DNA of 64,000 nucleotides from Candidatus Heimdallarchaeota archaeon (GCA_030603365.1 JAUVXV010000001.1:320001-384000); one strand, 5' to 3'. Positions 10,567-27,582 are shown, numbered from the stretch's first letter. Program-made: numbers and translations. The notes: generated from the sequence alone by a model not told the origin.

Positions 10567-10644
10567 CTAACTTTTTATTTCTAATAAATGAATACACTCA
10601 AACTTTAAAAAATATTGCATTTAAAATGGTATTTTTCACACATA

Positions 10645-11652
10645 TTAATTAGTTATTTGAAGTACTACCTTTATTGGTTTAGCAAGATTTTTGTCAATTA
10701 TAAACGCTATAGCTTTAGATTTGGTAATTACATCCTTGATCTCTTTTTCTGGACTAAGCATTTTTCCTTGAATCATTATATCGGGCTTTGCCAAACCATA
10801 AGTTAAAACTAACCTCAAAATTAGATCCTTTACCGTCTCTTCAGGATTTACCACAAATTCAATTTGCTCTAGTTTGTATAGTTCTCCACAAGTTGGACAT
10901 TCTTCTGATTTTACAAGTTCTAAAATAGTTGTAGCATTACTCAAACCATCATAGAACATATAATTGTCTAAAGTATTTCCTATTCCTAATATTAACTTTA
11001 ATGCTTCTTGGGACATAAATCCTGCAATTATAGATGATAAAGTTGCTACTGCAGGTAACGGAGGTTCTTTTTCTAATTCATCTTGCCTTTCCTTCTTTCT
11101 TTCTTCTCCAAAAGGAGTACATGCTTGAGCAAGCTCTTCATCAGGAACTAGCGGTTGGCACTCAAAACATGCTGTTTCATAAGGTTTTATGACTTGAACA
11201 TTACCTAAGAATGCAAACATACCTCCCATAACAAGAGGGGCTTTTACTCTAACTGCCATCGAGTTTATCCATCTTCTTCCTATGAATGTGTCTAGACACG
11301 CGATTATAACATCAGCTTCTTCATAGATAGCAGAAGATACATCCTCCATTTTTTCATGAATGAATTCAATCTCACATTTAGGATTGAGTGGTTTCAGGTT
11401 TTCAGCAGCTATTTGGGATTTTGATTTTCCAACATCTTTATCTCTAAAAAGTAACTGTCTGTTTAAATTAGAGATTTCAATGGTGTCAAAATCAATAATG
11501 ATCAGTTTTCCTATACCAGAAGAAACAAGAATTGTTGCAACATAGCTTCCAATTGCTCCTATTCCAACAAGAACAATAGTACTTTTAGTTAGTTTATCCT
11601 GATCCCAACCAGGTATCAGTGTCTGTCTGGAATAGCGTTCATCATCACTCAT
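10645..11652 (-). CDS. Ubiquitin-activating E1-like enzyme (ThiF/Uba family) with C-terminal ubiquitin-fold-like domain
   Basis: 'RYSRQ', GIGAIG, DFDTIEISNLNRQ, Zn pairs CFEC/CPTC, candidate catalytic Cys in 'AQACTP'. Confidence 0.92.
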   Translation of the reverse strand: MSDDERYSRQTLIPGWDQDKLTKSTIVLVGIGAIGSYVATILVSSGIGKLIIIDFDTIEISNLNRQLLFRDKDVGKSKSQIAAENLKPLNPKCEIEFIHEKMEDVSSAIYEEADVIIACLDTFIGRRWINSMAVRVKAPLVMGGMFAFLGNVQVIKPYETACFECQPLVPDEELAQACTPFGEERKKERQDELEKEPPLPAVATLSSIIAGFMSQEALKLILGIGNTLDNYMFYDGLSNATTILELVKSEECPTCGELYKLEQIEFVVNPEETVKDLILRLVLTYGLAKPDIMIQGKMLSPEKEIKDVITKSKAIAFIIDKNLAKPIKVVLQITN

Positions 11653-11772
11653 GAAGTGTACAACCCTTGATATTTCTTTTAGAATTATCCGATATAAGTT
11701 TTTTTTTACTTAGTTATTGAACTAAAACACATTCAGAAAAGAGAATTATTATGAAAAAAAGCATAAAGAAAA

Positions 11773-12009
11773 TTAAGAACCACCTTTGGTTCTAGCAATA
11801 AGATAGCATTTGTCGCCATCCATCATACCTGTCTGTTTTAGGATTTCACTGTCATCTAGTTGTTTTCCATGAAAAACAATAATAACTGTGTTTGCAGGAA
11901 TCTTCTTCTTCTTTGCTACTTCTCTTTTTAATTGTGCTACTGTTGAATGTGGATCAACATCCAATTCAATTGATCCCCCACCAATTGCTGTAACTACTGA
12001 AATACGCAC
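11773..12009 (-). CDS. Ubiquitin-like protein, precursor ending GG-S
   Basis: Beta-grasp pattern 'IELDVDPHSTVAQLKREV...IVFHGKQLDDSEILKQTGM', C-terminus 'ARTKGGS'. Upstream of E1. Confidence 0.93.
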   Translation of the reverse strand: MRISVVTAIGGGSIELDVDPHSTVAQLKREVAKKKKIPANTVIIVFHGKQLDDSEILKQTGMMDGDKCYLIARTKGGS

Positions 12010-12111
12010 TTTTTTTACACCTAACCTATTCTACTCTTTTCTAGAACATATTCATTATTAAAGCTTACCAAATTGTACGAGCTAAAATCTTGATGAACAA
12101 ATCTAGAAATA

Positions 12112-12522
12112 TCAAGATCTAACTATTTTCTTCTTCTCTCCTTTTCTTTTTATTGTAATAGAAGAAGGTATACCTTCAATTTCCCTCTCCAGTTTTTTAA
12201 TCCCTAATCTTGATATTTGTTTTCCCTCTAAAAATCCAATTTTGATCATATAGAGAACATTTTTAAAAATAATTTCTGCTGTTTGTTTTTTATTTGGACT
12301 ATTATATAGATCTGACCAATAATCATAAGCTTCTGGAACCAAAAAGAATTGCATTAGAGATATTTTATCCTTTTCTTCAATACTTTGAGGTGCTTCTTCA
12401 GCGTTTTTCAGCTCTTCCATTCGCTCTTTTCTCTGTTCAGCGATACGCATGAGTTCTTGCGCTTTTTTCTTTCTTATTGCATCCAATTCATCATCGGTGG
12501 TCATAACATCTCTTATTTTCAA
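12112..12522 (-). CDS. PDCD5/TFAR19-like protein (probable start ATG 12504)
   Basis: 'DDELDAIRKKKAQEL', 'FLVPEAY', C-terminal 'ITIKRK'. Confidence 0.7.
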   Translation of the reverse strand: MKIRDVMTTDDELDAIRKKKAQELMRIAEQRKERMEELKNAEEAPQSIEEKDKISLMQFFLVPEAYDYWSDLYNSPNKKQTAEIIFKNVLYMIKIGFLEGKQISRLGIKKLEREIEGIPSSITIKRKGEKKKIVRS

Positions 12523-12794
12523 AACATTAAGTCAAGTTATAAATCTATTTTTCAATAACATTGAACAATTATTTACAAATAAAAGTGTGAAATTTGGTGA
12601 TAATACTTTTATCTCGTTTAAAAAACTACAAGGTACTGGAGATAGGTGATTGGATTGAATAATACAATTCATGATGAGTTGTTTAGTTTTTAAATTTCAT
12701 CGTAGATTAATTTTAAAGATTTTAACTTTGAAAGAAGTGTCCTGCCAAAAATACTTTAAATAATCAAAACAAAGCATAATTAACAGAAGTTACC

Positions 12795-13448
12795 ATGAAC
12801 CAGAGGATTATCCAGATGTTTGAAGAGAAGAAAAATCAAAGAATCGCTAGAATCATCGAATTACCGATTCCAACAGATTTCTTTGATATGCTTCAAGATC
12901 TGATATCTTACTATGGTAACACTGACAAAGCAATTCTTGAATCTATTAAATCGCATCATAAAGAGCAGTTTGGGACTCTTGATGACTTTAAAATATCTAT
13001 TTCACCCATAGCTACAAGGTCAGTACGTCAAGCATCATCTATCAATGCTTCAGTAACTGATGCAAGACTAGCTAAGATAGTTGAAAATGGAAAGAGGATG
13101 GAAAAAAGAACTCAGAAAGAAATTAAGAAAGTGGATAATTTACTTAATAAACTGGAAGACTTAACAGCTCTCAAAGAACTGAAAGACGAAATTAGTTCTA
13201 TGAAATCAATGATTGAAAGGATTCAATCTACTGGAGGAATAACAAGTAGAACAAGAGGTTCAAGAGCAGATTTATCTTCGCTAGATGTGTCTGTTGTTGA
13301 CCAAATTGATACACCATTATCTCCACCTGAACGTCCTCTCCTGGATACAGTTTTAGACAGTATGCTTTTCTTTGATGATGAAGACCTATTAGACGATAAT
13401 AGCGATGATGAAAAAGAAGAAGAAAAAGAAACTGAAGATAAAAACTAA
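12795..13448 (+). CDS. Hypothetical protein: RHH-like N-terminus, coiled coil, acidic tail
   Basis: Strand-helix-G-helix pattern at residues ~20-55, heptads at ~95-145, Asp/Glu-rich C-terminus. Confidence 0.5.
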   Translation: MNQRIIQMFEEKKNQRIARIIELPIPTDFFDMLQDLISYYGNTDKAILESIKSHHKEQFGTLDDFKISISPIATRSVRQASSINASVTDARLAKIVENGKRMEKRTQKEIKKVDNLLNKLEDLTALKELKDEISSMKSMIERIQSTGGITSRTRGSRADLSSLDVSVVDQIDTPLSPPERPLLDTVLDSMLFFDDEDLLDDNSDDEKEEEKETEDKN

Positions 13449-13451
13449 AAC

Positions 13452-13997
13452 TTAGGGATCTAATTTCTTTGCTTGTTCTACTAGAAGTTCAGCTATTTCT
13501 GAAAAAGCCTCCTCTACATGGGCTCCTGTTAATGCACTTGTTTGGAAACTGCTATGACTTTTAAGTTTAGTATGGGTTTCATCACATTCCTTTTTAGAAA
13601 CAGCAATTTGATTTTTCAAATCTTCTTTATTTCCTACCAAAATTTTGACCACATCTTTTCCACAATTTTCAGAGAACTCCTTGCTCCATTTCTGAACGTT
13701 CTTTAGAGTGGCTGCTCTAGTTAAATCATAAACTAATAAAGCTGCTTTAGCACCAATATAGAAAGTATGACGAATAAATCTAAATCTTTCCTGACCTGCC
13801 AAATCCCAAATTGAAAGCGCTACTCTTGTTCCGTCTTTCAGATCTACATGTTTTTCAGAAGGTTCCATTCCAATCGTCATCAAGTAAGAACTGTCAAATC
13901 TACCATGAACAAATCTTTGAACCAAACTGGTTTTCCCTACAGCAGCATCTCCTAATAATAGAATTTTAAAATTATAATCTGGTTGAAGTTTACTCAT
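13452..13997 (-). CDS. Rab-like small GTPase (Ras superfamily)
   Basis: G1 GDAAVGKT, G2 TIG, G3 WDLAGQERF, G4 NKED, G5 TSA. No C-terminal Cys. Confidence 0.95.
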   Translation of the reverse strand: MSKLQPDYNFKILLLGDAAVGKTSLVQRFVHGRFDSSYLMTIGMEPSEKHVDLKDGTRVALSIWDLAGQERFRFIRHTFYIGAKAALLVYDLTRAATLKNVQKWSKEFSENCGKDVVKILVGNKEDLKNQIAVSKKECDETHTKLKSHSSFQTSALTGAHVEEAFSEIAELLVEQAKKLDP

Positions 13998-14001
13998 TTT
14001 C

Positions 14002-14310
14002 TTAATCTCCTAGTGTTTTAGATAGTTCTTCGAGCTCGTTATTAAGGCTAGATAAATAGAATGATTCGAAATTTCCTTGAGCTCTCTCAATAGTAGTAAG
14101 AGATACACATAAGTCCAGAGCAGTCTCCTTGAGCTCTTTTTCATGATCCTTTGGGATGTAAGACTCTATCTTACTTTGTGCTCTTTTAGCAAGTGTTGAA
14201 ATTTCTTTACTATCAGCTAATCCATCCTCATATGCAGTAAGGGTTTTTTGCATCCAAATAACTGCTTTCTTGAGTTCACTTATATTATCAAGTGGTGAAA
14301 CAGCATTCAT
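14002..14310 (-). CDS. Small helical-bundle hypothetical protein, probably co-transcribed with the GTPase
   Basis: All-helical amphipathic pattern. Ends 4 bp before the GTPase start. Confidence 0.65.
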   Translation of the reverse strand: MNAVSPLDNISELKKAVIWMQKTLTAYEDGLADSKEISTLAKRAQSKIESYIPKDHEKELKETALDLCVSLTTIERAQGNFESFYLSSLNNELEELSKTLGD

Positions 14311-14372
14311 TACAAATAAGAAAAAGAAACAGCGTTAATATAATTTGCGTTTGCTAGTAAAGAAAATAAAAC

Positions 14373-14403
14373 AAAAAAAAGAGGGAAAATCCCTCTCCAC
14401 TCC
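14373..14403 (-). terminator. Hairpin + T-tract preceded by GGAGTGGAG (left border of the island)
   Basis: Minus strand reads GGAGTGG-AGAGGGA-TTT-TCCCTCT followed by a T run. Confidence 0.6.
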
Positions 14404-14428
14404 CATAATAAATGAGGAGATTGAAATT

Positions 14429-15082
14429 TTAGTAATCAGATTTTTTCTTCTTACATTTACAAATCATTAATAGGGCAACAATAATGGAAGTAAGAGGAAG
14501 GACAATTGAAAGCGGTTTGTATTCAGGGATTATATAGTCAAATGGAATATAAGTGATGTTCATCACTCCCGAACTCATCTGAAGTATAGCTTCATAAGCA
14601 TCACCAAGAGTAGTATTATAAAATAGAGTTTCTATATAGATAGGTCTCCAGAAGGTATAATTACCATCAGGAAGATAAGGAAGGTCTGTTTGGTTGACGT
14701 AGAAAATCATAGGGTGAACTTCAACAGTGATACCAGGAGGGTAGGAACAAGTCTCTACAGAACCAGAACCAATCGATCTAACTGTTAGCTCTAAAGATTG
14801 ATTGACAAAAGACACATTGAGAAATACATAAGGTGATGTACTTGATTCAATAAGCGTTTGGTTTTGGTCATCTCTATTTAATATTTCCACAGTTGCGTTA
14901 AGACTGAATTGAGTAGTATTTGGTTTAAGGAGGTTAGGATATGAATTGATGGAAATATCACTGATCAATGATACTCTTGAACTAACGATAGTATATTCAC
15001 CTTCAACAGATGCAATATTAGACAGGATTAAAAGTTGTAATAATGCTAATGATATAGTGATTTTTTTCACTGAATGTTTCAC
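14429..15082 (-). CDS. Secreted/membrane-anchored beta-rich protein, copy 1
   Basis: Signal peptide, many N-x-S/T sequons, C-terminal TM + Lys tail. Close paralog of 16051-16695. Confidence 0.75.
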   Translation of the reverse strand: MKHSVKKITISLALLQLLILSNIASVEGEYTIVSSRVSLISDISINSYPNLLKPNTTQFSLNATVEILNRDDQNQTLIESSTSPYVFLNVSFVNQSLELTVRSIGSGSVETCSYPPGITVEVHPMIFYVNQTDLPYLPDGNYTFWRPIYIETLFYNTTLGDAYEAILQMSSGVMNITYIPFDYIIPEYKPLSIVLPLTSIIVALLMICKCKKKKSDY

Positions 15083-15219
15083 ATTATTCTACCTCCTTAA
15101 AGCAATCAATTTTCGATATGTGTTCATTTATACTTATGCATAATATATTATAAACATTCATGCTAACCTTCCCTCTGTATATGCCTTACCGCATGCAAGA
15201 TATAAATCAACATACCCAT
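14500..15219. repeat. Copy 1 of a duplicated unit (subtilase 3' end + intergenic + secreted protein); copy 2 at ~16120-16832
   Basis: Long near-identical stretches in both copies, e.g. 'ggtctccagaaggtataattaccatcaggaagataaggaaggtctgttt'. Left boundary approximate. Confidence 0.9.
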
Positions 15220-15892
15220 AACCCATCTGGTCAAATGTACTTCTGGAACTAGCATATTGCAAGATATCAATAACTTTTTGAACAGTGGGATCAGTCGAAG
15301 AACCGATTCCATTATGATATCCTGTAATTATTAAAGCTATTATGCCTGCGAGATAAGGTGTGCTATAACTTGTTCCACAATGATATCTCCAGATACTTAT
15401 AGGTTGACCGTATCCGTCAAATCCCCATGTTAAAGCTGGTATCCCATTTCCAGGATCAAGCCAGTTAACAATGTGATTCCCCGTTTCATATGATTCATAC
15501 CAAGAAGAGAAAATTGATTTTCCATTTTTCGTAGACACTGGAGCTCCTACAGGTCGAGTTTCATGGTCTATTGAACCAATAGAATACCACTGAGAATAGT
15601 AACTAGGATACAGTCTATAATCACTACCATCGAAGTTTCGATAATTACCAACATTAAAATATCCATTTCCAGATGCACATATCATTATAACCCCCTTATT
15701 GATCAGGCTATCCCACTTGGTTGCAATATTAGGGGTAGAATATAATATGTCATCAACAAAATCTTGAGACCATGTAATGATATCTATGTCATATGTTGCT
15801 TGATTATCATCTAACCACGTCCATAAATCAAGATCACCTTCATAAAATTCGTAAGGGTCTTGTCCAAAGAAATCAACAAGTTGCATATCCAC
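15158..15892 (-). pseudogene. 5'-truncated subtilisin-like (S8) serine protease
   Basis: Oxyanion motif 'CASGNG' and catalytic-Ser motif 'GTSYSTPYLAG' are present. Catalytic Asp/His region and signal peptide are absent (in-frame stop at 15941-15943 upstream). Confidence 0.8.
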
Positions 15893-16050
15893 AAAGTTAT
15901 CAGAATTTCGTAGGATTTGAAACAGTTGAAGTAATTCAAATTAGGATTATAGTGAGTAATGTTATCTATGATTAATTCTTTCAAAGTTTCATTATTATTA
16001 ATTTTATAGAAAAAGAAAATGAGATTTTATTACAAGTTAATGAATAAAAA

Positions 16051-16695
16051 TCATCGTTTTCTCTTCTTAATATAGAGTATAAATATGATTATAGTTACCA
16101 TTGTAAGTGGAAAGGCAAGCGAAAGGGCAGTATACTCAGGGATTGTATAGTCAAATGGAATATAAGTGATATTCATTTCCCCTGAACTCATCCGAAGTAT
16201 AGCTTCATAAGCATCACCAGGAGTAGTATTATAAAATGGAGTTTCTATATTGATTGGTCTCCAGAAGGTATAATTACCATCAGGAAGATAAGGAAGGTCT
16301 GTTTGATTGACGTAGAAAATCATAGGGTGAACTTCAACAGTGATACCAGGAATGAAGGAACGAGACTCTACAGAACCAGAATCAAACGCATAAACTTCAA
16401 GTTCTAAGGATTGATTAACTAAAGACACATTGAGGAATACGTAAGGTATTGTATTTGGTTCAATAACTGTTCGATTTTGGTCATCTCTATTTAATACTTC
16501 TACAGTTGCGTTAAGACTGAATTGAGTAGTATTTGGTCTAATGATACTGGGAAATGAATTGATAGATATGTCACTGATCAAAGAAACTCTCGAACTAACA
16601 ATAGTATATTCACCTTCAACAGATGCAATGTTAGATAGGATTAATAGTTGGAATAATACCAATGTTATAGTAATCTTTTTCACTGAAAGTTTCAT
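16051..16695 (-). CDS. Secreted/membrane-anchored beta-rich protein, copy 2
   Basis: Paralog of 14429-15082 (shared 'VEVHPMIFYVNQTDLPYLPDGNYTFWRPI'). Confidence 0.75.
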   Translation of the reverse strand: MKLSVKKITITLVLFQLLILSNIASVEGEYTIVSSRVSLISDISINSFPSIIRPNTTQFSLNATVEVLNRDDQNRTVIEPNTIPYVFLNVSLVNQSLELEVYAFDSGSVESRSFIPGITVEVHPMIFYVNQTDLPYLPDGNYTFWRPINIETPFYNTTPGDAYEAILRMSSGEMNITYIPFDYTIPEYTALSLAFPLTMVTIIIFILYIKKRKR

Positions 16696-16770
16696 ATTAT
16701 TCTACCTCCTTGAAATAATCAATTTTCAATATATTTTTATTTATACATATACTTAATATGTTATAAACAT

Positions 16771-16832
16771 TCATGCTAATCCCCCCTCAGTATAAGTTCT
16801 ACCATATGCAATATAAATATCCACATAGCCAT
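16771..16832 (-). pseudogene. Remnant (last ~20 codons) of a second subtilase gene
   Basis: Encodes GYVDIYIAYGRTYTEGGLA*, versus GYVDLYLACGKAYTEGRLA* at 15158. Confidence 0.85.
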
Positions 16833-17128
16833 GGGAAAATGAATTGAAGAAAGTAGATTTAGAACCATTAGGTAGATGTAAAAAATTGAAAGGGATATAT
16901 TTGATAAGAAATAAGATAGAAGAGATAGATCTAACACCATTAGGGAAGTGTAAGGAATTGAGGGAAGTGAGTTTATCATCAAATAGGATAAGGAAAATAG
17001 ATTTGAGACCATTAAAGAAATGTGAAAAATTGGAGAGTCTGACACTGTTTTGGAATCCAATAGAAGAGATGGAGAGAGAAAGTAGAGACATACTAAAGAA
17101 ATACTATGAAATAATAAAAAAAGAATGA
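16831..17128 (+). pseudogene. 5'-truncated leucine-rich-repeat protein
   Basis: 22-aa LRRs (LxxIxLxxNKIxxIDLxPLxxC). Lacks the first ~50 codons present in the paralog at 26359-26808. Confidence 0.85.
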
Positions 17129-17191
17129 AAAAGGGCAGAGAGCCCGACTCCACTCCAAGAATAATGGGCCGAAAGACCCAGAAGAAAGAGA
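17128..17191 (-). terminator. Double hairpin with GGAGTGGAG spacer and T-tract (copy of 26808-26871)
   Basis: Minus strand: GGGTC-TTTC-GGCCC ... GGAGTGGAG-TC-GGGC-TCTCT-GCCC-TTTTT. Confidence 0.6.
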
Positions 17192-17305
17192 TTAAACAGA
17201 TTGTGAAACTTCAACAGGTTGTTCTACTAAAAACTCGTGAATAAGTATTTTCCTTCTTTAAATATCAATTGGAGAATAAGTAAGAAAAAGAGAAGAGAAA
17301 TACCA

Positions 17306-17620
17306 ATGAACTGGCAAATGATCTTCAAGATTTATGTAGAAGGAAAAGAAGGAAAGATAGAACTAACGAGATACAATATAACAACAGTAGACGGACTGAA
17401 ATTCTTCTTGAAGAACCTCTATGAAGAACAGAAAGGATGGTTAGTAGAGAAGAGGGAGAAGAGGGCATGGAATTACGAGATAGTATTTACAGACGAACTA
17501 GGAAGAGAAGTAGAGCTGAAGAAACTAAATGAACTGATACATGAGAGTGAGGAGATAATAAGTTTCTTCGAGATGACAGAGCTAACAATAGGAGAATTAT
17601 TAGTGGAGGGAATAGGATGA
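17306..17620 (+). CDS. Hypothetical protein, mobile-element/virus-like
   Basis: Purine-rich ORF with ATG at 17306. Stop overlaps the next start (ATGA). Confidence 0.6.
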   Translation: MNWQMIFKIYVEGKEGKIELTRYNITTVDGLKFFLKNLYEEQKGWLVEKREKRAWNYEIVFTDELGREVELKKLNELIHESEEIISFFEMTELTIGELLVEGIG

Positions 17621-17811
17621 TAGAGATAATCAGTTACATTGTAGCATTATTCCTCATCTGGAGTCTGATCATTCTAGAGGAAGGAGGAAGGTTTCCAATA
17701 AACGAAAGAATAGTAGTAAAGTATTGGGGTTTGAATAACGATGATTACAGAAAAATCAAGTATAAAATTAAGAAAGAGAAAAGAACTAAGAGTGAAGAGA
17801 AGGGAATTTAG
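17617..17811 (+). CDS. Small hypothetical membrane protein
   Basis: N-terminal TM and basic tail. ATGA-coupled to the upstream ORF. Confidence 0.45.
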   Translation: MIEIISYIVALFLIWSLIILEEGGRFPINERIVVKYWGLNNDDYRKIKYKIKKEKRTKSEEKGI

Positions 17812-17971
17812 GGAGATATGTGAATTAACAGTAAAAGAGATCTCAGGTTTCATTTCAATAGGATTATTTATCTTAGGAGTAGGGATATTGACCAAACTCT
17901 TCATTAAGGAAGTAGGAGGAGTAGGAGTTTTCTTTATAGTAATGGGATGCATATGACTAAGTTTTTGTCTA

Positions 17972-18544
17972 TTGTATTTTCTTCCTACTCCAGAGAGAGT
18001 AATGGATGAAGCAATAGCAGATGAAAGAAGGATGAATGGTTTCTCCAACATACTTAGAAGGATAGAAGATATGGAGGAGTTGAAAGAGATAGAAAGCAAG
18101 ATGTGGGATGTAAAAGAGATAAGAGTGAAGATAAGGAATTACGAGGAAGAGGAAAAAGAGGAAATAGAGTTCAAAATAACAGATTATCTAGAAAGAAAAG
18201 AACGACCAGAATTAAGAGGTATGTACTACTTAGAAAAGAAACCATTAGAAAAAATGTATCTTAAGGTAAGTACAGAATTGTGGAGAAGAGTGGAAGAGAG
18301 AAGACAGGAAAAAAGAAAGAAGATGGGAAAAATAAGGTTGAAATCTCTCCGGAAAACTGGGGAGGGACATGTGATAATACTTGGAAAGAGATTGAATGGA
18401 CAGAAGTTCTGGAAAAGAAAAGAGAAAGTAGAATTCTTTGTTGCGAAGGAGAAGTTAGAAGAACAAAAGGTTAGACCAACGATCATGAAAGAGCTTGGAT
18501 TTGAGCAGAAAGAAAGATTCAGATTACTAATAGAACAAGAATAA
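17972..18544 (+). CDS. Highly charged hypothetical protein, mobile-element-like (C-terminal part weakly AbrB-like)
   Basis: Purine-skewed, E/K/R-rich ORF. 'LRKTGEGHVIILGK' resembles a swapped-hairpin start. Confidence 0.5.
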   Translation: MYFLPTPERVMDEAIADERRMNGFSNILRRIEDMEELKEIESKMWDVKEIRVKIRNYEEEEKEEIEFKITDYLERKERPELRGMYYLEKKPLEKMYLKVSTELWRRVEERRQEKRKKMGKIRLKSLRKTGEGHVIILGKRLNGQKFWKRKEKVEFFVAKEKLEEQKVRPTIMKELGFEQKERFRLLIEQE

Positions 18545-18624
18545 GGATAAGATATTAATCTTTTCAGTTACTTGTTTTGGATGTCCTGAAAAATCTTTTA
18601 AGTTATCTTTCATATGTTAAAAAG

Positions 18625-19230
18625 ATGTCTTCAAAAGAAACTAAATTGAGCAAAGAAAAACGAAGAGAACTTCTCAGATTCAATCTGGAAAATATTAGAG
18701 AATATATTGCAATTGCTGATTCAAAAGCAAATATTACCTTATCTTTGTTAAGTTTTATAGTAGGAATAGGGTTGGGGGTTTCATTGATTGCTGATACATT
18801 TGAAAATGGAATATTGTTAACATATACGAATTATTGGTATTTATTCCTAATAATCCCCTTTTACATATTATTGATGGCGTATCTTATTTTATCCATCCTT
18901 GGAATAAATTCTGTAATTGGAGTTTATAGAGCCAGATTAGAATTAAAAGAAGAACAAGAAAAGGAGCAAGAATTAACTGGAGATATCTACTTCAAGCACA
19001 TATCAGATTATCAGTCATCTGATGAATATCATAAAGGAATCATGAACAAAACAGAAGAAAGTTATGAGAAAGATTTAGCAGAACAAGTATATTCTGTTTC
19101 AAATGTGTTAAGTAAAAAAATGGCAAAGGTAAATGAATCTATAAAATATCTAAAAATTTCCTTAATTTTGTTCATTCTTTTACTGCTTTTGAGTGCAGTG
19201 ATTGGAATTTTAATCCAAAATGGAGGATAA
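18625..19230 (+). CDS. Pycsar-type transmembrane effector (PycTM-like)
   Basis: 'NIREYIAIADSKANITL' (ADxKA), two TMs, 'IYFKHIS', 'DLAEQVYSVSNVLSKKMAKVNESI' and a final TM. Overlaps a cyclase gene. Confidence 0.85.
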   Translation: MSSKETKLSKEKRRELLRFNLENIREYIAIADSKANITLSLLSFIVGIGLGVSLIADTFENGILLTYTNYWYLFLIIPFYILLMAYLILSILGINSVIGVYRARLELKEEQEKEQELTGDIYFKHISDYQSSDEYHKGIMNKTEESYEKDLAEQVYSVSNVLSKKMAKVNESIKYLKISLILFILLLLLSAVIGILIQNGG

Positions 19231-19978
19231 TAAAATGGTCAGTAAATATGAATTAGAAAACCTCACTAGAAAGATAAAAACCTATATTGAGGAAGAATAT
19301 AGAATTAGAGAGTTTTCAGGAATACCAACAGTGAGTAATATTCCATATGGAATTAAAGGACAGAAAGGACAATTATGCGTATTTAGCATAGATCTTCGAC
19401 ATTCTACTAAGATGTTAAAGGAAATCGGAAAAGAAAAATCAGGAAGAATACATAAAGCATTCTTAACCATTGTAGCAAAAGTTGTCAAAAGCTATGGTGG
19501 AAAGATTCGAAGTTATACAGGAGATGGATTATTAGCTTTCTGGAAGGGAGATAGTTCTGATGAAGTTTCTAAATCTGTCAAAGCTGCAATGATTATACGA
19601 TGGTTATTTTCAATAAGTAATAATTCGAATCCTTCGCCAATAAAAAGCTTGATGGATAAAATATATGAAATAGATTTTGGGATAGGAATTGACTGTGGAG
19701 AGGTTTATGTATTTAGATCAGGTATACCTGATTCCCATCATGATTCTGATTTAATCTTTATGGGAGAGTGTGTTAATTTTGCAGTGTTTCTATCTCAAAA
19801 AGCTAAATCAAATAATTATATACAAATCTCTGAAAAAACATATTCCTTATTGAATGATGGATGGAAGTTTAGTACAAAGAATAATACGAAAGAAGATATG
19901 TGGACAGATGGTGAAGTAAAAGGAAAAGATAATATCACTAGAAATATCAAAAAGACTAATTGGTATTCACACATATAA
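19220..19978 (+). CDS. Class III nucleotidyl cyclase, Pycsar PycC-like
   Basis: Metal-binding 'FSIDLRHST' and 'YTGDGLLAFW', 'FGIGIDCGEV', 'DLIFMGECVNFA'. Stand-alone cyclase with no sensor domain. Confidence 0.87.
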   Translation: MEDNKMVSKYELENLTRKIKTYIEEEYRIREFSGIPTVSNIPYGIKGQKGQLCVFSIDLRHSTKMLKEIGKEKSGRIHKAFLTIVAKVVKSYGGKIRSYTGDGLLAFWKGDSSDEVSKSVKAAMIIRWLFSISNNSNPSPIKSLMDKIYEIDFGIGIDCGEVYVFRSGIPDSHHDSDLIFMGECVNFAVFLSQKAKSNNYIQISEKTYSLLNDGWKFSTKNNTKEDMWTDGEVKGKDNITRNIKKTNWYSHI

Positions 19979-20057
19979 TGAATTAGAAGAATTGGTCTAA
20001 TGCTGATTGCTTTTTGAGAAGTATTGGAGCCAGATTTCTCCTTAAATCTCATCTTTT

Positions 20058-20099
20058 GGTGAAAGACTGCAAATAAAAGGATAATTACTAGCTCCAATT
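20058..20099 (+). repeat. Direct repeat copy 1 (copy 2 at 22770-22813; 12-bp partial copy at 20248-20259)
   Basis: GGTGAAAGACTGCAAATAAAAGGAT (25 bp) is identical in both copies, followed by ACTAG..CTCCAATT. Confidence 0.9.
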
Positions 20100-20339
20100 T
20101 ACTTGCTTGTTAAACATATTTAAGTTTTGCACAATTTCCAAATCGAAAGTGAAATAGTTAATCTAAAAATATCTTCTCATTTTACTTTTTGGGTTTTTAT
20201 ATCGAAACCATATAATAGTAAATGCTACTAACAGTAGCAGAGAAATTGGTGAAAGACTGTTTGTTTAGAGGGAATTAATCTCAAAACATAATTGCTATCG
20301 TTGATGCAAGTTTTTTACCAGTTTATATCAGGTGATATC

Positions 20340-20462
20340 ATGAAAATAAAGAAAGTAGGTAAAATTGAGAACGGAAACAAACTAGATAAGATTTCAATAG
20401 TTCCATGTTGCGGAATGGCTGACTATGAACTAGCAATATGTGCATATCCACGTTTAAACTAG
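20340..20462 (+). CDS. Candidate RiPP precursor peptide, 40 aa (not in the ORF track): MKIKKVGKIENGNKLDKISIVPCCGMADYELAICAYPRLN
   Basis: AGGTGA Shine-Dalgarno at 20330-20335, ATG 20340, TAG 20460-20462. Lys-rich leader plus Cys/Tyr-containing core. Ends 32 bp before a radical SAM/SPASM gene. Confidence 0.75.
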   Translation: MKIKKVGKIENGNKLDKISIVPCCGMADYELAICAYPRLN

Positions 20463-20494
20463 TTCTCTTTTCTCTTTTTTTTGAGGTTTTAGAG

Positions 20495-21916
20495 ATGAAA
20501 AAAGAAAATAAAAGAAACAAATTGAATAAGTATGTGTATGAAGTCCAGCTATTAGATGAAGAGTGGTTTATATTTAATTTGCTAAATTTCAACTATGTAA
20601 TCTCAGATAAAAGTCTTAAACAAACTGAAATCGCGGAACTTGATTCTGATACAAGGGAGGTTTTGTATGACCTTGGTTTTATATCGGATATTGATGAACA
20701 AACCCTTTGTCAATCAAGAATAAAGGAATGGAAGAATAAAATTAAAAGTGATTACAATCCTTCATTCGAGACATTGGTTTTTAAGATTATGCCTACTCTT
20801 TTGTGTAACTTCAGATGTTCATACTGTTATCAACCAGAACTATATCTTGAGGAAACAAGAAGAAAAACAGAATATATGAGGACAGAGGTACTAGATGCAT
20901 TTTTCGAATATATTGAGAACAATATTATTCAAAAAGAAAAAAGGAAAATTAGATTAGAAATTGTGGGAGGAGAAGTTTTCTTAAAAAATAGAAATGCAAT
21001 CAGATTTGTTGAACATCTTATTGAAAAGACAATCAACTACAATATGGAGCTAATTTTTGTTACAAATGGCTAACATCTTGACCACTTTCTGGAAATTTTA
21101 AAACGAAAAGAAAACATAATGTATAATATTACAATTGATGGAGAGAAAAAAAAACATGACTCTAGAAGATTTTTAGCTGGAGGAAAAGGGAGTTTTGACA
21201 AAATTATTCAAAATATAGACAAAATTCTATCAGAGACAAATCATAAGGTTCGAATAAGATGTAATATTGATGATGATAATATAGAATCAATTCCTTCTCT
21301 TCTGCTATTTTTACAAAACAAAGGATGGTTATCACTTGAGAGAATAGAGATGATTTTTAGAGCAACAACAGAATATTCAACAAATAACGATTACGATTTT
21401 CCTATTGCAAGGAACATTATTTCACCAGAAAATATCGTTAGATTTATAGAAATTCTACGAAAACAAGGAATGAGAGAAGCAAATATTGACGGTACATTAA
21501 TTCCTCCTGTTTTAATAGGATTATTTTGGTCTCGATTATTTGAAGAAGAGATGATAGATGAGAACCGAAGAACTAAAACAATAGATATTCTTTGTAGTGC
21601 AACTCAAGGTTTTTTTGGTTCATTAGAGCTTGATGGAACAATTCGCTCATGTGGATTTGAATTAGCTCAATCTCAAGGAAAAATATTTCCAAGAGAGGAA
21701 GTTATATATGAAAATGTCAAATATTGGAATTCTGTTGAGTTTATTCTTGAGAAATTCCTACACCAACCTTGTCTTGAGTGCAAATTCTTCTTTGTTTGTA
21801 ATAAAAGGCAATGTCCTTACAATCAACTTGATCAATATGATGAGAAGTTAGGATACTGCATTGATGTTGAACAAAGTCTAGATACATTCTTCAGATACTT
21901 TGGAAAATTCCTATGA
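20495..21916 (+). pseudogene. RRE-radical SAM-SPASM peptide maturase interrupted by one in-frame TAA (21071-21073)
   Basis: GAGGT SD and ATG 20495. N-terminal PqqD/RRE-like segment ending 'LYDLGFI', then CNFRCSYC, GGE, and 'VTNG*HLDH...ITIDG' continuing in the same frame. SPASM cysteines in CSA, SCG, CLECKFFFVC, CP. Confidence 0.88.
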
Positions 21917-21975
21917 AAAGTTGTTAATTAACTCGTAATATTTAAATTACTGCAGTTCTTTGTTATTTTGATATT

Positions 21976-22575
21976 ATGAAAGAAATTGCTGTTTCCTTGA
22001 ATCTTATAGATTTAGTAAACGATCCCATTAAAATCTCTATCTGGCAAGAAATCTTTAACAACGAAGGAATAACTGCCAAAGAACTGAAAAAAAGGTTGGT
22101 TCTTGAAGGTACAAGCATCTATTACCATTTAAACTATTTAGAAGAGAATAAATTAATTTTATCAGAAACTCATATGATTCCAAACTCAAACTTATCGCAA
22201 AAAACATACAGAATCAATAAAGAATTGTATAGCTTGAATGAAAAAACAAAAAGAAAGGAAATTGCGGATTCCTTTGATAGAGCAAAGGACATTCTTCTTC
22301 TCAAGACACATATGATAATAAGCCATTTTCAGCAACAAGTTCGAATATTATCTAAAACTACTAACGAAGAAATCAAGAAATTAATCGAAAAGGATTCCAT
22401 TTTCATCAATGATATAATCTATGTTCAAGATAAAGATTTACTTGAAATCGTGGATAAGGTTAATGAAGTTAAAAGCATTATGAACAGAATTCGAAAAAGT
22501 ATTCATCCAGAAGAATATTCTAAAAATGCTACTAATATAATAGTGTTTAGTACCCTTCCTCTAAAAGATATTTAA
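21976..22575 (+). CDS. ArsR-like winged-helix transcriptional regulator
   Basis: 'DPIKISIWQEI...ITAKELKKRL...TSIYYHLNYLEENKLI...KTYRI'. Confidence 0.85.
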   Translation: MKEIAVSLNLIDLVNDPIKISIWQEIFNNEGITAKELKKRLVLEGTSIYYHLNYLEENKLILSETHMIPNSNLSQKTYRINKELYSLNEKTKRKEIADSFDRAKDILLLKTHMIISHFQQQVRILSKTTNEEIKKLIEKDSIFINDIIYVQDKDLLEIVDKVNEVKSIMNRIRKSIHPEEYSKNATNIIVFSTLPLKDI

Positions 22576-22769
22576 CTCTGAATTCAGCTTTATCCTAACC
22601 CTCTTTTAAACAAATATTTAATATTCCTTTAAGTCAATAGATTTGAAGTATTTTGATTGTTTTTCTAACTCTTTGCACAAAAAATAAGTTATGTTTATAT
22701 ACCAAAAACATGTCTACAAAGTGAACGTTCCGTTGTTAGACTGAGTAAATGAAACTTTGCTAAACAAAA

Positions 22770-22813
22770 GGTGAAAGACTGCAAATAAAAGGATGACAAC
22801 TAGTACTCCAATT
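22770..22813 (+). repeat. Direct repeat copy 2 of 20058-20099
   Basis: 25-bp exact match plus a similar tail. Confidence 0.9.
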
Positions 22814-22919
22814 AGAATGAATTGCAAAACTAACAGAAATTAATCTGTATGACAAAAACTTTCGAAGACACACAGAAAATCAACAAGGAACGTTACAAAA
22901 CTAAAAAAAGGTAAAAATA

Positions 22920-23222
22920 ATGAAAAAAAGTATAAAGATATTATTACCAATATTGGTATTATCACTTATTCTACCAGTTTTGGTGAATGATGTACAACAA
23001 GTATCTGCTGCACCCTACTACGGTTCAGTTGATTTTAGTGGAACTGTTTATTTGAATTGGTCTAATGAAGAAGTAGGTAGCGTGAAAGTATCGTTGAATG
23101 AAGATGGATCGCCAAAAAGGACAGACTATACGGATTCAAATGGTTACTATGAGTTCACTTGGACTGTAGTTCAATACAAATTTTACTCGATCAGCATAGA
23201 AAAAGATGGTTATAAAGGATAA
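22920..23222 (+). CDS. Secreted protein with prealbumin-like/carboxypeptidase-regulatory-like domain, probably truncated
   Basis: Signal peptide, then 'SGTVY...VKVSL...TDSNGYYEF...ISIEKDGY'. Stops immediately after KDGY. Confidence 0.65.
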   Translation: MKKSIKILLPILVLSLILPVLVNDVQQVSAAPYYGSVDFSGTVYLNWSNEEVGSVKVSLNEDGSPKRTDYTDSNGYYEFTWTVVQYKFYSISIEKDGYKG

Positions 23223-23258
23223 AGCATAAAAATCAAGAATATATGGAATAGAATAGAG

Positions 23259-24857
23259 ATGAAAAAAAGATTACAACTTATAAGGAATTTTGGTTATTTT
23301 TGCAGTTTAATATTACTGATTGTTTTTTTTGCAAATTATATGTTTCTATTAAACAGCGAACAAATTTTGGAAAAAGAAACTATATTCCAAACTGATTCAT
23401 TGTATGAAGTTAAACTAACACTGAGTGATCCAATAATCATAATCAATGATCAAGATCTTGAGAGCTTTGGTTTTCAAGGTTCAGGAACTGAAGCAGAACC
23501 TTACCTTATAGAAAATTATCTTATAGATACAGACGATGAATTTGGGATTTTTATTACAAATGTTTCAAAGCATTTCAAAATTCAATATTGTGAGGTTTAT
23601 GCAGGGATATCAGCTATTAGCATAAGTAATTTAACACTAGAAAACATTGAAATTACTAACAATGTTTGTCAAGGTGAGGAATGGTATGGGATTTATATTT
23701 ATTCAACAAATTATGTGGTAATAACCGATAATTGGTGCAGTGGAGGAGCAGCAGGAATTGTTTGTTGGTACTCGAACAGTGAGTTTATTGAGAACAATGA
23801 ATGTTATGACACTGATTTTGGCATAGCTCTTTATGAAACTCATAAGTCCATTATTGGAGATAACTTCTGCTACAATAATAATATTGCAGGAATTCGTATA
23901 ATGTATTCTAGTTATAATAATATCTCAAGAAATACAATTAACATTGCAGGAAAAGGGATTAGTCTTGTAAGTGCTAGTTTTGGGTCAATTCATGAAAATT
24001 TCTGTAATAATACATTTTGGGGGATTTCAGCAGAATATACAAACAGAATATCAATACATGATAATCTATGTATCAGAAGTACTACAGGAATACAATTATG
24101 GCATACAGGAAAAATAAACATTACCCACAATGAATGTTATTCTTGTCACCGAGGAATTTCAGTTGATGATGATTCTGAATCACAGGTTCGAAATAATATC
24201 TGCTATAATAATTCCGAACATGGTATTTATATCAGAACTGGTGAATCAACTCAAGTATCTAATAATTCTCTTTATCTGAACAAATTAACAGGAATTAAGA
24301 ATCTTAGAGGTTCTCCAATTATTGGACTAAACAATTGCAGTATGAACAACATTGGAATACTTATGAGAGATGTTCAATCACTTACACTTTCAAATAATAC
24401 CTGTACATTGAACGTGGATGGAATTGTATTAGAGGAAACAGATTACTCTACTATTTCTTATAATATTCTCCAAGAAAATATAGAATATGGTGTAAAAATC
24501 TGGGATTGGTCAACTTGGAACAAAATACATCACAATTACTTCATCTGCAACAATAGAAATGGTACTGAACATGGTTTTTCTCAAGCTTATGATGAAGGGT
24601 ATAATAACAGATGGTATGAAAGCTCTACAGATGAAGGGAACTATTGGAACGATTATGAAGGGATTGGAGAGTATCAGATTGACGGAAAAGATAACAATAC
24701 CGATCCTTATCCCTTTGAATACTATTTTGAGTGTATAAAAACAGAAACAATAACTGAACCAACAGAAGAATCTTCTTTAAGTCTTCTTACTGTTTTATTA
24801 TCATTCATTGGGACTGCGTCGATTGCTAAAATTCGATATAAAAAAGAAAAGAAATAG
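23259..24857 (+). CDS. NosD/CASH right-handed beta-helix surface protein with C-terminal TM anchor
   Basis: 'GSGTEAEPYLIEN', many 'GI.L......I..N.C..N' repeats, 'GNYWNDY', 'DPYP', TM + Lys tail. Confidence 0.88.
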   Translation: MKKRLQLIRNFGYFCSLILLIVFFANYMFLLNSEQILEKETIFQTDSLYEVKLTLSDPIIIINDQDLESFGFQGSGTEAEPYLIENYLIDTDDEFGIFITNVSKHFKIQYCEVYAGISAISISNLTLENIEITNNVCQGEEWYGIYIYSTNYVVITDNWCSGGAAGIVCWYSNSEFIENNECYDTDFGIALYETHKSIIGDNFCYNNNIAGIRIMYSSYNNISRNTINIAGKGISLVSASFGSIHENFCNNTFWGISAEYTNRISIHDNLCIRSTTGIQLWHTGKINITHNECYSCHRGISVDDDSESQVRNNICYNNSEHGIYIRTGESTQVSNNSLYLNKLTGIKNLRGSPIIGLNNCSMNNIGILMRDVQSLTLSNNTCTLNVDGIVLEETDYSTISYNILQENIEYGVKIWDWSTWNKIHHNYFICNNRNGTEHGFSQAYDEGYNNRWYESSTDEGNYWNDYEGIGEYQIDGKDNNTDPYPFEYYFECIKTETITEPTEESSLSLLTVLLSFIGTASIAKIRYKKEKK

Positions 24858-24999
24858 AATAATAGATTCCCTGTCCTAATTCATTTTTTTTCTTAAAACT
24901 CTAGAGATTTTATTATTGAGTATAAATCGAACTATTAATGAATTACCAAGCTTTAAATAGGAATTTATCAATCTAATATTTGAGCGTTTAATTCACCGA

Positions 25000-26301
25000 A
25001 TGGACATGCTTGGAATGAATATGATAAACAAATCTGAAATGAACAAAACACTTCTCTTCTACAGTATAGGCATTGTTATGTGCAAGAATCTGGTAAAAAC
25101 ATCATTTGCTGAAGATATATTAACGAAATTTTGGATTTGGGTGAATGCCAAGATAATAAGAAGAGTAATGGAAGAGAAGATGAACGAACTTCCACTATTA
25201 AGAAAACTTTACCAAGAGAAAATGATAAAATTCATACAGCAAAGTGATAAACTGTTACTTATATACGCACCCTATTCTTCCTCTAGTTCTATAAGTTATA
25301 TTAAAGCATTTAATGATGATAATTCAATCTCGTTCTTAGATTTATTCAGAACAACCGATGGTAGAGTACTTGATCTAAATGTGCTTCTAGCAAATCACTA
25401 TGTTAAGATACTAACAGATCCTAATCACAAAATAACGAAAGAATTAAGTAGACTTGAACTAGAAGATGGAGGGACAAATGTCGCACAATTGGCTTTATCA
25501 GCAATAAATTTTTTGAAAGAAAAAACGGGGTATACTTCGCTTTACAAGAAAGAAATGTCAATTGAAGGAATAATCAAAGATATGGGTTTAGATCTGAATA
25601 TTAACGAAGCAGTTGAACAAGGATTAATCAAACGAGATTCAGCAATAGCGCAATATAAGACACTCCATTTATCTTCTGAAGGTGATTTATATAAAGTAAC
25701 TGAAGCAATCAAGAATATCTTCTATTTAGACAGTATCTATAAAGGACTATATACAATTGGAGAAATTGCAAAGGATATGATGAAAAGTGGTTCTAATGGT
25801 GGGTTAAGAGAATCAGATTTGATTGAATTATTTAAAAAAGAAATAAATGGACGAATGACATATGCAATGGGAACTTCAACAATAACTGCTTTTGAGATTA
25901 AGGCACCTGCAATAAAAGTGCTAAGCACAACTACACATTATGATGTGGATATAAAAGAAAAAGATCTAAAGAGTCAACAATTAGCGTTACTTACTAGAGA
26001 TGCGGTCGAACAATATCTGGATACAAAAATACTGATGCCAACATGTTACATAGGAGAGGGGAACATAATAGTAGAGAACATAATGGAATCAATAGTAGCA
26101 TTGCAACTAAAGGAAGCAGCAGTAAGTTGGAAGAGAATAAATGATTTCGAGCAAATAGCACAACTAGTAGGAACAGAAAAGGCATATGAACTAGTGTTTG
26201 GAAAGGGATATAATTATAATCCAACAAAACTGAATAAGAAAAACTGGTTCATGAGGTGGATACATCTGATGGCAGGATATAGTTTCGTAGATCCAAAATA
26301 A
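25000..26301 (+). CDS. Hypothetical protein with a possible C-terminal PD-(D/E)xK nuclease motif
   Basis: 'RESDLI...AFEIKA...QQL' spacing. Otherwise unrecognised. Confidence 0.4.
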   Translation: MDMLGMNMINKSEMNKTLLFYSIGIVMCKNLVKTSFAEDILTKFWIWVNAKIIRRVMEEKMNELPLLRKLYQEKMIKFIQQSDKLLLIYAPYSSSSSISYIKAFNDDNSISFLDLFRTTDGRVLDLNVLLANHYVKILTDPNHKITKELSRLELEDGGTNVAQLALSAINFLKEKTGYTSLYKKEMSIEGIIKDMGLDLNINEAVEQGLIKRDSAIAQYKTLHLSSEGDLYKVTEAIKNIFYLDSIYKGLYTIGEIAKDMMKSGSNGGLRESDLIELFKKEINGRMTYAMGTSTITAFEIKAPAIKVLSTTTHYDVDIKEKDLKSQQLALLTRDAVEQYLDTKILMPTCYIGEGNIIVENIMESIVALQLKEAAVSWKRINDFEQIAQLVGTEKAYELVFGKGYNYNPTKLNKKNWFMRWIHLMAGYSFVDPK

Positions 26302-26358
26302 AGAAAAAAGGTAGATTAAAATACCTCTTTTCACATTTATTATTTTAAGGGGATAAGA

Positions 26359-26808
26359 GTGAGAAAAGTAAGAGGGAAAAGAAGTACAGGAGAAGAATAC
26401 ATACAAGAAATTAAAGATACAACAACGCTTGTGAACATGAGTAAATTAGGATTAGTGGAAGTAGATTTAAGAGAACTTGAGGGATTGAAAGAATTATTAT
26501 ATGTTTATCTATGGGAAAATGAATTGGAGGAAGTAGATTTAGAACCATTAAGAAAATGCAAGAAATTGAAAGGGATATATTTACATGGAAATAAAATAAG
26601 AGAGATAGATTTAACTCCGCTGGAGGAGTGTAAAGAGCTGAGGGAAATTGGACTGTCATCAAATAAAATAAGAAAAATAGATTTGAGACCATTAAAGAAA
26701 TGTGAGAAATTGGAGAGCTTGACGCTGTTTTGGAATCCAATAGAAGAGCTGGAGAGAGAAAGTAGGGATATAATGAAAAAATACTACGAAATAATAAAAA
26801 AAGAATGA
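26359..26808 (+). CDS. Small leucine-rich-repeat protein
   Basis: Four to five 22-aa LRRs (e.g. LKGIYLHGNKIREIDLTPLEEC). Confidence 0.9.
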   Translation: MRKVRGKRSTGEEYIQEIKDTTTLVNMSKLGLVEVDLRELEGLKELLYVYLWENELEEVDLEPLRKCKKLKGIYLHGNKIREIDLTPLEECKELREIGLSSNKIRKIDLRPLKKCEKLESLTLFWNPIEELERESRDIMKKYYEIIKKE

Positions 26809-26917
26809 AAAAGGGCACAGAGCCCGGCTCCACTCCAAGAATAATGGGCCGAAGGACCCAGAAGAAAGAAATTAAACAGATTGTGAAACTTCAACAGGTT
26901 GCTCTACTAAGAACTCG
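26511..26917. repeat. 407-bp direct repeat, copy 2
   Basis: See 16831-17237. Confidence 0.95.
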
Positions 26918-27144
26918 AAATTTTCCCTAATACTTGGGTCGAGATAGTAGAAGACCGAACGCATATCTGACAAATTGGACATTTTTTTGAGGATGCCTTT
27001 CTCTAATAATCTTCTTATACCATACCTTACTGTTCTTTCAGGTTGTTCTACTGAACCGAGGATTTGCTTCTGAGTCATAGGACCATTTATGTCTAAGACC
27101 TTAATTATGTCTTCTCCACCACGTGGCAATTTTCGTCTTTTCAT
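26872..27144 (-). CDS. MarR/ArsR-like winged-helix protein; apparent integration target
   Basis: 'IIKVLDINGPMTQKQI...PERTVRYGIRRLLEKGIL...DMRSVFYYL'. AAGGTG SD before ATG 27144. Confidence 0.85.
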   Translation of the reverse strand: MKRRKLPRGGEDIIKVLDINGPMTQKQILGSVEQPERTVRYGIRRLLEKGILKKMSNLSDMRSVFYYLDPSIRENFEFLVEQPVEVSQSV

Positions 27145-27582
27145 TTTTTTACACCTTGATTTTTTAAATCCCTTCAATCAATTTTCATTGACTGTCATGC
27201 TCTTTTGAGCCTTTTTTTGTTGGTGATATCCTCTCCTACCATCTGTCCTTATAAACTTTTGGGAGGTTCAAATACCGCTACTCTACCGTAATTCGGATGA
27301 TTCTATATGTATTATTCATACATATCTCATTATTTCATTTCTTTATGAAATGTTCCGACTCAAAGGTTCTAGTACTAATACTTGTCCTTTTTCACTTATA
27401 TACATTTCTCAAAACAAGGCAAAAAATGAAAATCTTCAACCTATTATTTGTTTTTTTTGCATTTTCAAGTCAATTTGCGAGTTACTACTACTCAATTTTC
27501 ACGTGTAACTCATTCTTTTTTCTTGAGGAAACTAATTCGGTTAATTAGTTAAATTTAAAACCGTTTCATTCTTCTTTATTTT

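Follow-up and report, generated by a model that had tools for sequence, protein, structure and literature searches.

Stepwise gene gain at an insertion hotspot behind a conserved wHTH gene in a Heimdallarchaeota genome

We analysed a 64,000-nt stretch of the genome of Candidatus Heimdallarchaeota archaeon (GCA_030603365.1 JAUVXV010000001.1:320001-384000; hereafter the window, whose positions serve as coordinates throughout, the genome itself being G000), in which 12.5 kb of defence and surface-protein genes appear to have been added stepwise behind a conserved gene for a winged helix-turn-helix (wHTH) regulator (26872..27177, minus strand, probable start ~27144). The 3′ end of this gene is a true insertion hotspot. 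In the reading that we favour, and hold to be somewhat probable, the interval between the wHTH gene and the conserved 102-aa host gene on the distal flank (14002..14310, minus strand; the 14310 gene) grows by repeated recombination with relatives' DNA, anchored in the wHTH gene and without a dedicated integrase, as a tandem form of ‘insertion with long target duplication’. The hotspot is genuine and makes an instructive example, but it does not amount to a new element family.

The wHTH gene is highly conserved in the genus, and relatives show its site both empty and filled. In 17 same-genus genomes the 14310 gene comes 127-167 nt after it, with a small GTPase next in line; this is the empty site that an original prediction, made from the window's sequence alone, had put forward as its key expectation. 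The site is filled in four further same-genus genomes (G007, G011, G014 and G020) and in two metagenome contigs (L075 and L077), with 0.7-8.3 kb of differing genes. Tandem filling occurs in two lineages, that of the window genome and that of G007, where the wHTH gene and its 3′ untranslated region (UTR) are followed by a leucine-rich repeat (LRR) gene, a fragment of a 433-aa protein gene, cargo, an orphan wHTH end with UTR and LRR stub, and older cargo. These filled and tandem-filled alleles bear out the predicted succession of insertions at the wHTH 3′ end. In G022, whose wHTH site is empty, an orphan wHTH end with a flank as for the G007 orphan lies on a separate short contig (G022:C371; L080:2726-2941) and represents either a second strain or a displaced copy.

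The window carries a 407-bp direct repeat (16831-17237 versus 26511-26917; 87.5% identity, no gaps, blastn E 7e-142, offset 9680), each copy of which runs from the 3′ portion of an LRR gene through a segment with two hairpins into the final 46 bp of the wHTH gene. The recurrence of this wHTH end at 17192-17237, as originally noted, is confirmed at 44 of 46 positions, and both changes are synonymous. The 99 LRR codons in the repeat comprise 64 identical ones, 21 with synonymous differences and 14 that encode another residue; by codon position 1/2/3 the differences number 16/5/24, a third-position bias. No further copy of the repeat's 3′ part was found in the 3.65-Mb genome. The outer copy consists of the 3′ fragment of an older LRR gene (16831..17128, plus strand), a copy of the wHTH 3′ UTR with two hairpins (17129..17191, minus strand; z -5.0; 95% identical to the current UTR) and the orphan 46-bp wHTH 3′ end (17192..17237, minus strand), whose inner junction lies inside an AACTCG microhomology. 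The inner copy begins within the current LRR gene (26359..26808, plus strand; 149 aa, 217 aa in G007), which is convergent with the wHTH gene and ends at the UTR hairpins, and continues through the current wHTH 3′ UTR (26809..26871, minus strand; two hairpins and a U-tract, of imported type).

The original prediction had read a shared ~360 bp, ~87% identical, as an ‘element end’ that included the hairpins. The repeat is real, at the length and identity given above and with its synonymous changes, but the hairpins are the 3′ UTR or terminator of the host wHTH gene, because relatives with an empty site also carry two hairpins and a U-tract after their wHTH stop, with stem variants that preserve pairing. 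Hairpins as an element end are thereby ruled out. They were read from single-sequence folds; the RNAalifold alignment had a register shift.

The tail of the current wHTH gene, judged by sequence comparison, is imported, and the gene is a mosaic. Codons 12-72 are 89-92% identical to the closest relatives and the tail only 69-76%, though those relatives share 80-90% in the tail. In a stretch across which the protein barely changes, private differences rise ~100 nt before the stop, from 6 in 149 nt to 21 in 100 nt (breakpoint scan, P 4e-5, 0/200 permutations), and the breakpoint falls ~100-121 nt before the stop (zone ~26971-26992), with host-type sequence on its 5′ side and imported sequence over the final ~100 nt. 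Moreover, a third, partial copy of the hairpin region, comprising the second hairpin and U-tract (14365..14414, minus strand), is the outermost UTR remnant and is 82-89% identical to close relatives, versus 64-69% for the two inner UTR copies, which are 93-96% identical to each other. This remnant is of host type and belongs to the native UTR. The orphan at 17192, by contrast, came with an earlier import and is not the ancestral tail, which implies at least two imports from similar donors.

The outer part of the interval is itself repetitive. As had been proposed, an older LRR-ended block is cut at 16831; at 16831/16832 it abuts a second direct repeat (14490-15219 versus 16103-16832; 730 bp, 85.8%) that spans a membrane-protein gene and the end of an S8 peptidase gene. 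The genes and gene remnants outward of the LRR fragment, all on the minus strand, are a predicted surface or membrane protein of 217 aa without a Pfam match (14429..15082), whose family is also found at this site in G020 and two metagenome contigs; a 5′-truncated S8 peptidase (15158..15892), whose match to the 387-aa form encoded at this site in G020 covers ~residues 152-386; the second copy of the membrane protein (16051..16695); and the last 20 codons of a second S8 peptidase copy (16771..16832), fused to the LRR fragment with only 2-3 bases shared.

Under the recombination reading, incoming DNA of a related lineage would bring its own wHTH end and 3′ UTR together with the donor's downstream genes. 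One crossover would take place in the conserved wHTH body, presumably with RadA (RadA-family genes are present in the genome), and the far end would rejoin the recipient wHTH 3′ region, either directly at a microhomology or through circularisation and then a single crossover. The wHTH gene would remain intact with a donor tail, and the previous tail would be displaced outward as an orphan; repeats of the process would stack blocks, with the newest adjoining the wHTH gene and the older ones eroding. The probable order of gain is the native UTR (remnant at 14365-14414), the S8 and membrane-protein cassette (two copies), the LRR-ended block (now 16831-17237 only) and the 9.7-kb block. Overlap at the far junctions is short (AACTCG at 17237, 2-3 nt at 16831), a signature that later deletions also give. 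There is comparative precedent for long, variable target duplications without mobile elements (PMC2853133) and for integrase-free hotspots (PMC5635113), and in E. coli single-crossover integration of recircularised DNA duplicated 109-950 bp of the anchor gene (PMC3240628).

The same scar is found elsewhere in the genome. When gene ends were compared within 40 kb genome-wide, orphan 3′ ends lay downstream of their own gene in 22 cases versus 4 upstream, and intact paralogues showed no such bias (33 versus 40). The duplicated lengths are 33-474 nt, and changes by codon position are 131/81/291, with the third dominant. No shared motif was found among the 22 junctions, and CA stands at only 2/22. 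At two other scar loci, those of a kbl-like and a fumarase-like gene, relatives show empty sites. Since this scar recurs at ~20 other genes, the genome-wide pattern points to general recombination with DNA from relatives and away from a new mobile-element family. The dedicated, undescribed family of the original prediction lacks support for the same reason: the scarred genes are unrelated and share no junction motif, and in the viral-contig search that the prediction had proposed three probes, the attachment-site (att) probe included, gave no match. A viral origin was rejected on these empty probes. Two further observations are related. On a contig of another species (G016:C164; L180, L182), two 3′-end matches to the fumarase-like gene, one of them decayed with stops, show a scar of this kind at that locus too. 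At G000:C1:620747-636979 (L052, L053), seven copies (86-98%) of the final ~60 nt from a non-coding element that is conserved, has no Rfam match and is single-copy in most relatives lie between surface-protein genes.

Several observations weigh against anchor-gene recombination. The orphans of G007, G020 and G022 (87-97 nt) start within ~6 nt of one position, around codon 72-74, and CA directly precedes the orphan in all four inserts (genomic CA frequency 0.06), two of these boundaries having been set by eye; because the three starts lie close together and the four inserts end in CA, a dedicated enzyme stays a rival. Two lineages have the module of LRR gene and 433-aa gene at this site. Of the 22 genome-wide orphans, some are decayed paralogues in gene arrays, so that ~20 scarred genes is an upper estimate, and the mosaic signal is weakened by a somewhat higher variability of tails than of gene bodies, seen in all relatives. 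Classical homology-facilitated illegitimate recombination (HFIR) usually deletes recipient DNA and does not duplicate it (PMC3240628). Finally, neither DprA nor a DNA uptake route was found in the 89%-complete genome.

The best-surviving rival, which follows the original prediction and which we regard as unlikely, is that the blocks are site-specific integrative elements or satellites whose attP carries ~90 nt of wHTH sequence plus the UTR, with the integrase acting in trans or lost and the shorter orphans eroded. The clustering of orphan starts at 87-97 nt fits such elements, as do the LRR-ended tandem blocks of two lineages and the restored reading frame, which is met in islands targeting gene ends; furthermore, G000 has one XerA-like gene on another contig, as well as short serine recombinases. 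However, the length of orphan wHTH coding sequence differs among genomes (46 nt in the window, 87, 94, 97 and 21 nt elsewhere, none in L075), so that the fixed 46-bp att core of the original prediction finds no support, although three of the five lengths cluster and erosion may have altered the other two. In G000, moreover, the import begins 100 nt or more before the stop, further upstream than the supposed core. The ~20 unrelated target genes without a common motif and the empty viral-contig search count against it too. As the original prediction had stated for integrases and transposases, no integrase, transposase or recombinase was matched by any insert open reading frame (ORF) of the window in Pfam, PADLOC or NCBIfam, three ORF families being without assignment; the window insert gave neither a tyrosine nor a large serine recombinase match. 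Nor did the seven filled alleles, several of which are only 0.7-3.5 kb, show a recognisable recombinase gene, the family-library scans covering window ORFs alone, and G007, 92% complete and tandem-filled, gave no PF00589 match, i.e. no tyrosine integrase. Two specific candidates were rejected: XerA/dif-type integration, given that the one tyrosine recombinase of G000 occurs only patchily across the family and was not found in G007, and a tRNA or Rfam RNA as target, none having been found and the window having no tRNA.

Rather improbable, in our estimate, is a dedicated undescribed pathway, for instance one with a DDE-type enzyme that makes CA ends, or a guided insertion system, that would insert cargo at gene ends and supply the replacement tail. 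Just as doubtfully, this could be a Heimdallarchaeaceae pathway marked by a recoded tail and serving many protein genes and one non-coding RNA gene, with cargo free of integrase and transposase and with the module of LRR gene and giant-protein domain as passenger or part. The CA before the orphan in four inserts and the polarity of the scars towards gene ends speak for a pathway of this sort, as does a 900-bp transposase-free module that is 91-95% identical at several sister-genus loci; against it stand the scarcity of CA at the genome-wide junctions, the failure to find a reverse transcriptase in the 89%-complete genome, the absence of terminal inverted repeats or a matching inverted end at the insert and, as far as a model of pLDDT 66 can show, the lack of a recombinase-like fold match for the 433-aa candidate protein.

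Slightly less credible still is a tandem duplication that arose locally within a single lineage, after which the copies diverged, deletions occurred and cargo was captured later. The two inner tails agree at 95-96%, the S8 and membrane-protein unit is also duplicated, with a comparable divergence, and the genome has many paralogue arrays; yet this account leaves unexplained both a current tail and UTR unlike those of close relatives while the outermost UTR remnant matches them, and the sister-genus Pycsar cargo between the copies. An assembly chimera of two strains, conceivable in a metagenome-type assembly with 3.4% contamination, is highly improbable given a 701-kb contig with both flanks syntenic with relatives and a like architecture in the independent assemblies G007, G020 and L077.

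The 9.7-kb block is a patchwork, and nothing in it indicates replication, packaging or conjugation; the longest ORF in the insert as a whole is 532 aa, and no ATPase family match was found there. Beyond the orphan lies the gene of a 104-aa protein (17306..17620, plus strand) whose family has a single core copy near Elp3 plus additional, variable copies that number up to 10 in one genome; the protein has no fold match. The junction at 17237 falls in a short match (AACTCG) to a motif upstream of homologues of the next gene at four unrelated loci. An imperfect inverted repeat, with arms ~GAAGCTAGC and GCCAGCTTC ~50 nt apart, is conserved upstream of the 104-aa gene promoter (L113, L114, L115, L088, L120), and short motifs like these arms flank the orphan in G007 and G022. 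A ubiquitin-like nature of the 104-aa protein was considered and set aside; a low-confidence model gave no match. In G025, which has up to 10 matches of the family, a 900-bp module of two genes, for the 104-aa family and a 155-aa protein, recurs 91-95% identical at several unrelated loci (L116:11086-12006, L117:9581-10477, L118:10628-11556), with no transposase seen beside it.

Two plus-strand ORFs of 71 and 190 aa follow (17741..18544) and are probably one split gene, because G016 has a single 272-aa ORF. Adjoining genes for a PycTM-like transmembrane effector (18577..19230, plus strand; Pfam PF18967 above cut-off, PADLOC E 1e-25) and a PycC-like cyclase (19220..19978, plus strand; PADLOC E 2e-48) show the pairing expected of a Pycsar anti-phage system and probably constitute one. 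The cyclase was not found in 24 same-genus genomes, and its closest copies (44-55%) are in two sister-genus genomes, where they are also paired with PycTM. Restriction-modification families gave no match in the insert, and Pycsar is its defence cargo. A sub-block between 44-bp direct repeats (88.6%; 20058..22813) carries a radical SAM/SPASM gene (20438-21916) that a single in-frame TAA (21071-21073) interrupts, as well as a helix-turn-helix regulator (21976-22575). Next come the 5′ fragment of a surface-protein gene, with 33% identity to a gene of 413 aa from the insert of G007, and the gene of a NosD beta-helix surface protein (22920..24857, plus strand).

The 433-aa protein (25000..26301, plus strand) is homologous (21-23%) to the C-terminal domain of giant proteins. 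Its domain forms 7 clusters among 1.84 billion proteins, is otherwise C-terminal in proteins of 2213-2374 aa, and has no match in two complete genomes of the same family (3.08 and 3.33 Mb); a fragment of the gene precedes the LRR gene at this site in G007. The idea of a hidden recombinase was set aside: the protein has no Pfam, NCBIfam or PADLOC assignment, no Atlas match and no word-index homologue, and its predicted model, of pLDDT only 66, gave no Foldseek match, while its best Z was 5.7. A second stand-alone copy (23% identity; G000:C1:693735-695021, L050:12699-13985) lies convergent with an LRR gene among S8 peptidases. The giant proteins (L045:4464-11105, L046:3538-10179, L047:2678-9802) have an apparent signal peptide and no Pfam match, and their genes sit in variable regions, with RPL10e or Elp3 and genes for type I restriction as neighbours. 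In G007 and G022 the actin gene, too, has fragments of the C-terminal domain beside it.

Purines are enriched on the plus strand at 16831-18544 and 26359-26917 (68% A+G, versus 45-48% in the flanks). Beside the hotspot, at 9163-13997, lies a conserved cluster of genes that look, by sequence appearance, E2-like, E1-like and ubiquitin-like, with a Rab-like GTPase.

Our results suggest that much accessory gene gain in this Heimdall lineage, Pycsar and many surface proteins included, proceeds by recombination anchored in ordinary genes. Such a route leaves the anchor unbroken while genes are added and would escape searches that rely on integrases, and its scars record the polarity and order of insertion.

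The Asgard mobile elements described in PMC8813620 and PMC11529989 are linked to integrases or tRNA sites. The host here seems to belong to the family of Heimdallarchaeum, from which aloposons and HeimM2 (PMC8813620) are described, alongside the Atabeyarchaeia elements (PMC11529989); LRR cargo is shared with HeimM2, and a giant-protein relic lies upstream of the anchor. Unlike aloposons, the locus has no tRNA site, no tandem genes for 3000-6000-aa proteins, no ParA/MinD and no integrase. Additive tRNA-anchored islands, or tycheposons (10.1101/2020.12.28.424599), likewise have the newest insert adjoining the anchor, older ones outward and partial anchor copies between, whereas here the anchor is a protein gene, the partial copies are variable and no integrase is recognised in any allele. 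Integrase-free hotspots of horizontal gene transfer (Oliveira 2017, PMC5635113), where 27% of hotspots are without mobility proteins, resemble the locus in high gene turnover between two core genes and recombination in the flanking gene; their double-crossover model, however, replaces content and leaves no duplicated gene end. HFIR and single-crossover integration of recircularised DNA (PMC3240628) share one homologous anchor, another junction with little or no homology, a recombined (mosaic) anchor gene such as we met here and, in the circular route, variable 109-950-bp anchor duplications, although HFIR typically deletes recipient DNA and was shown in competent bacteria and E. coli conjugation, whereas neither an uptake route nor DprA was found here. 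The closest likeness is to insertion with long target duplication (Nobusato 2000; Furuta 2010, PMC2853133), in which inserts are <20 kb (here 9.7 kb), relatives show the empty site, duplications exceed 30 bp and vary (here the repeat is 407 bp, and in relatives the UTR is duplicated together with 21-97 nt of coding sequence), no mobility gene is present, the repeat overlaps a gene end and the cargo includes defence. The cargo there is restriction-modification genes, which were the original search criterion, and here Pycsar and surface proteins; in addition, the copies here are 87-96% alike with a synonymous bias, the gene tail is imported, blocks are stacked in tandem and the scar recurs at ~20 genes of one genome. 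The locus is a variant of a known scar type, notable for its tandem stacking and for the frequency of the scar in an Asgard genome.

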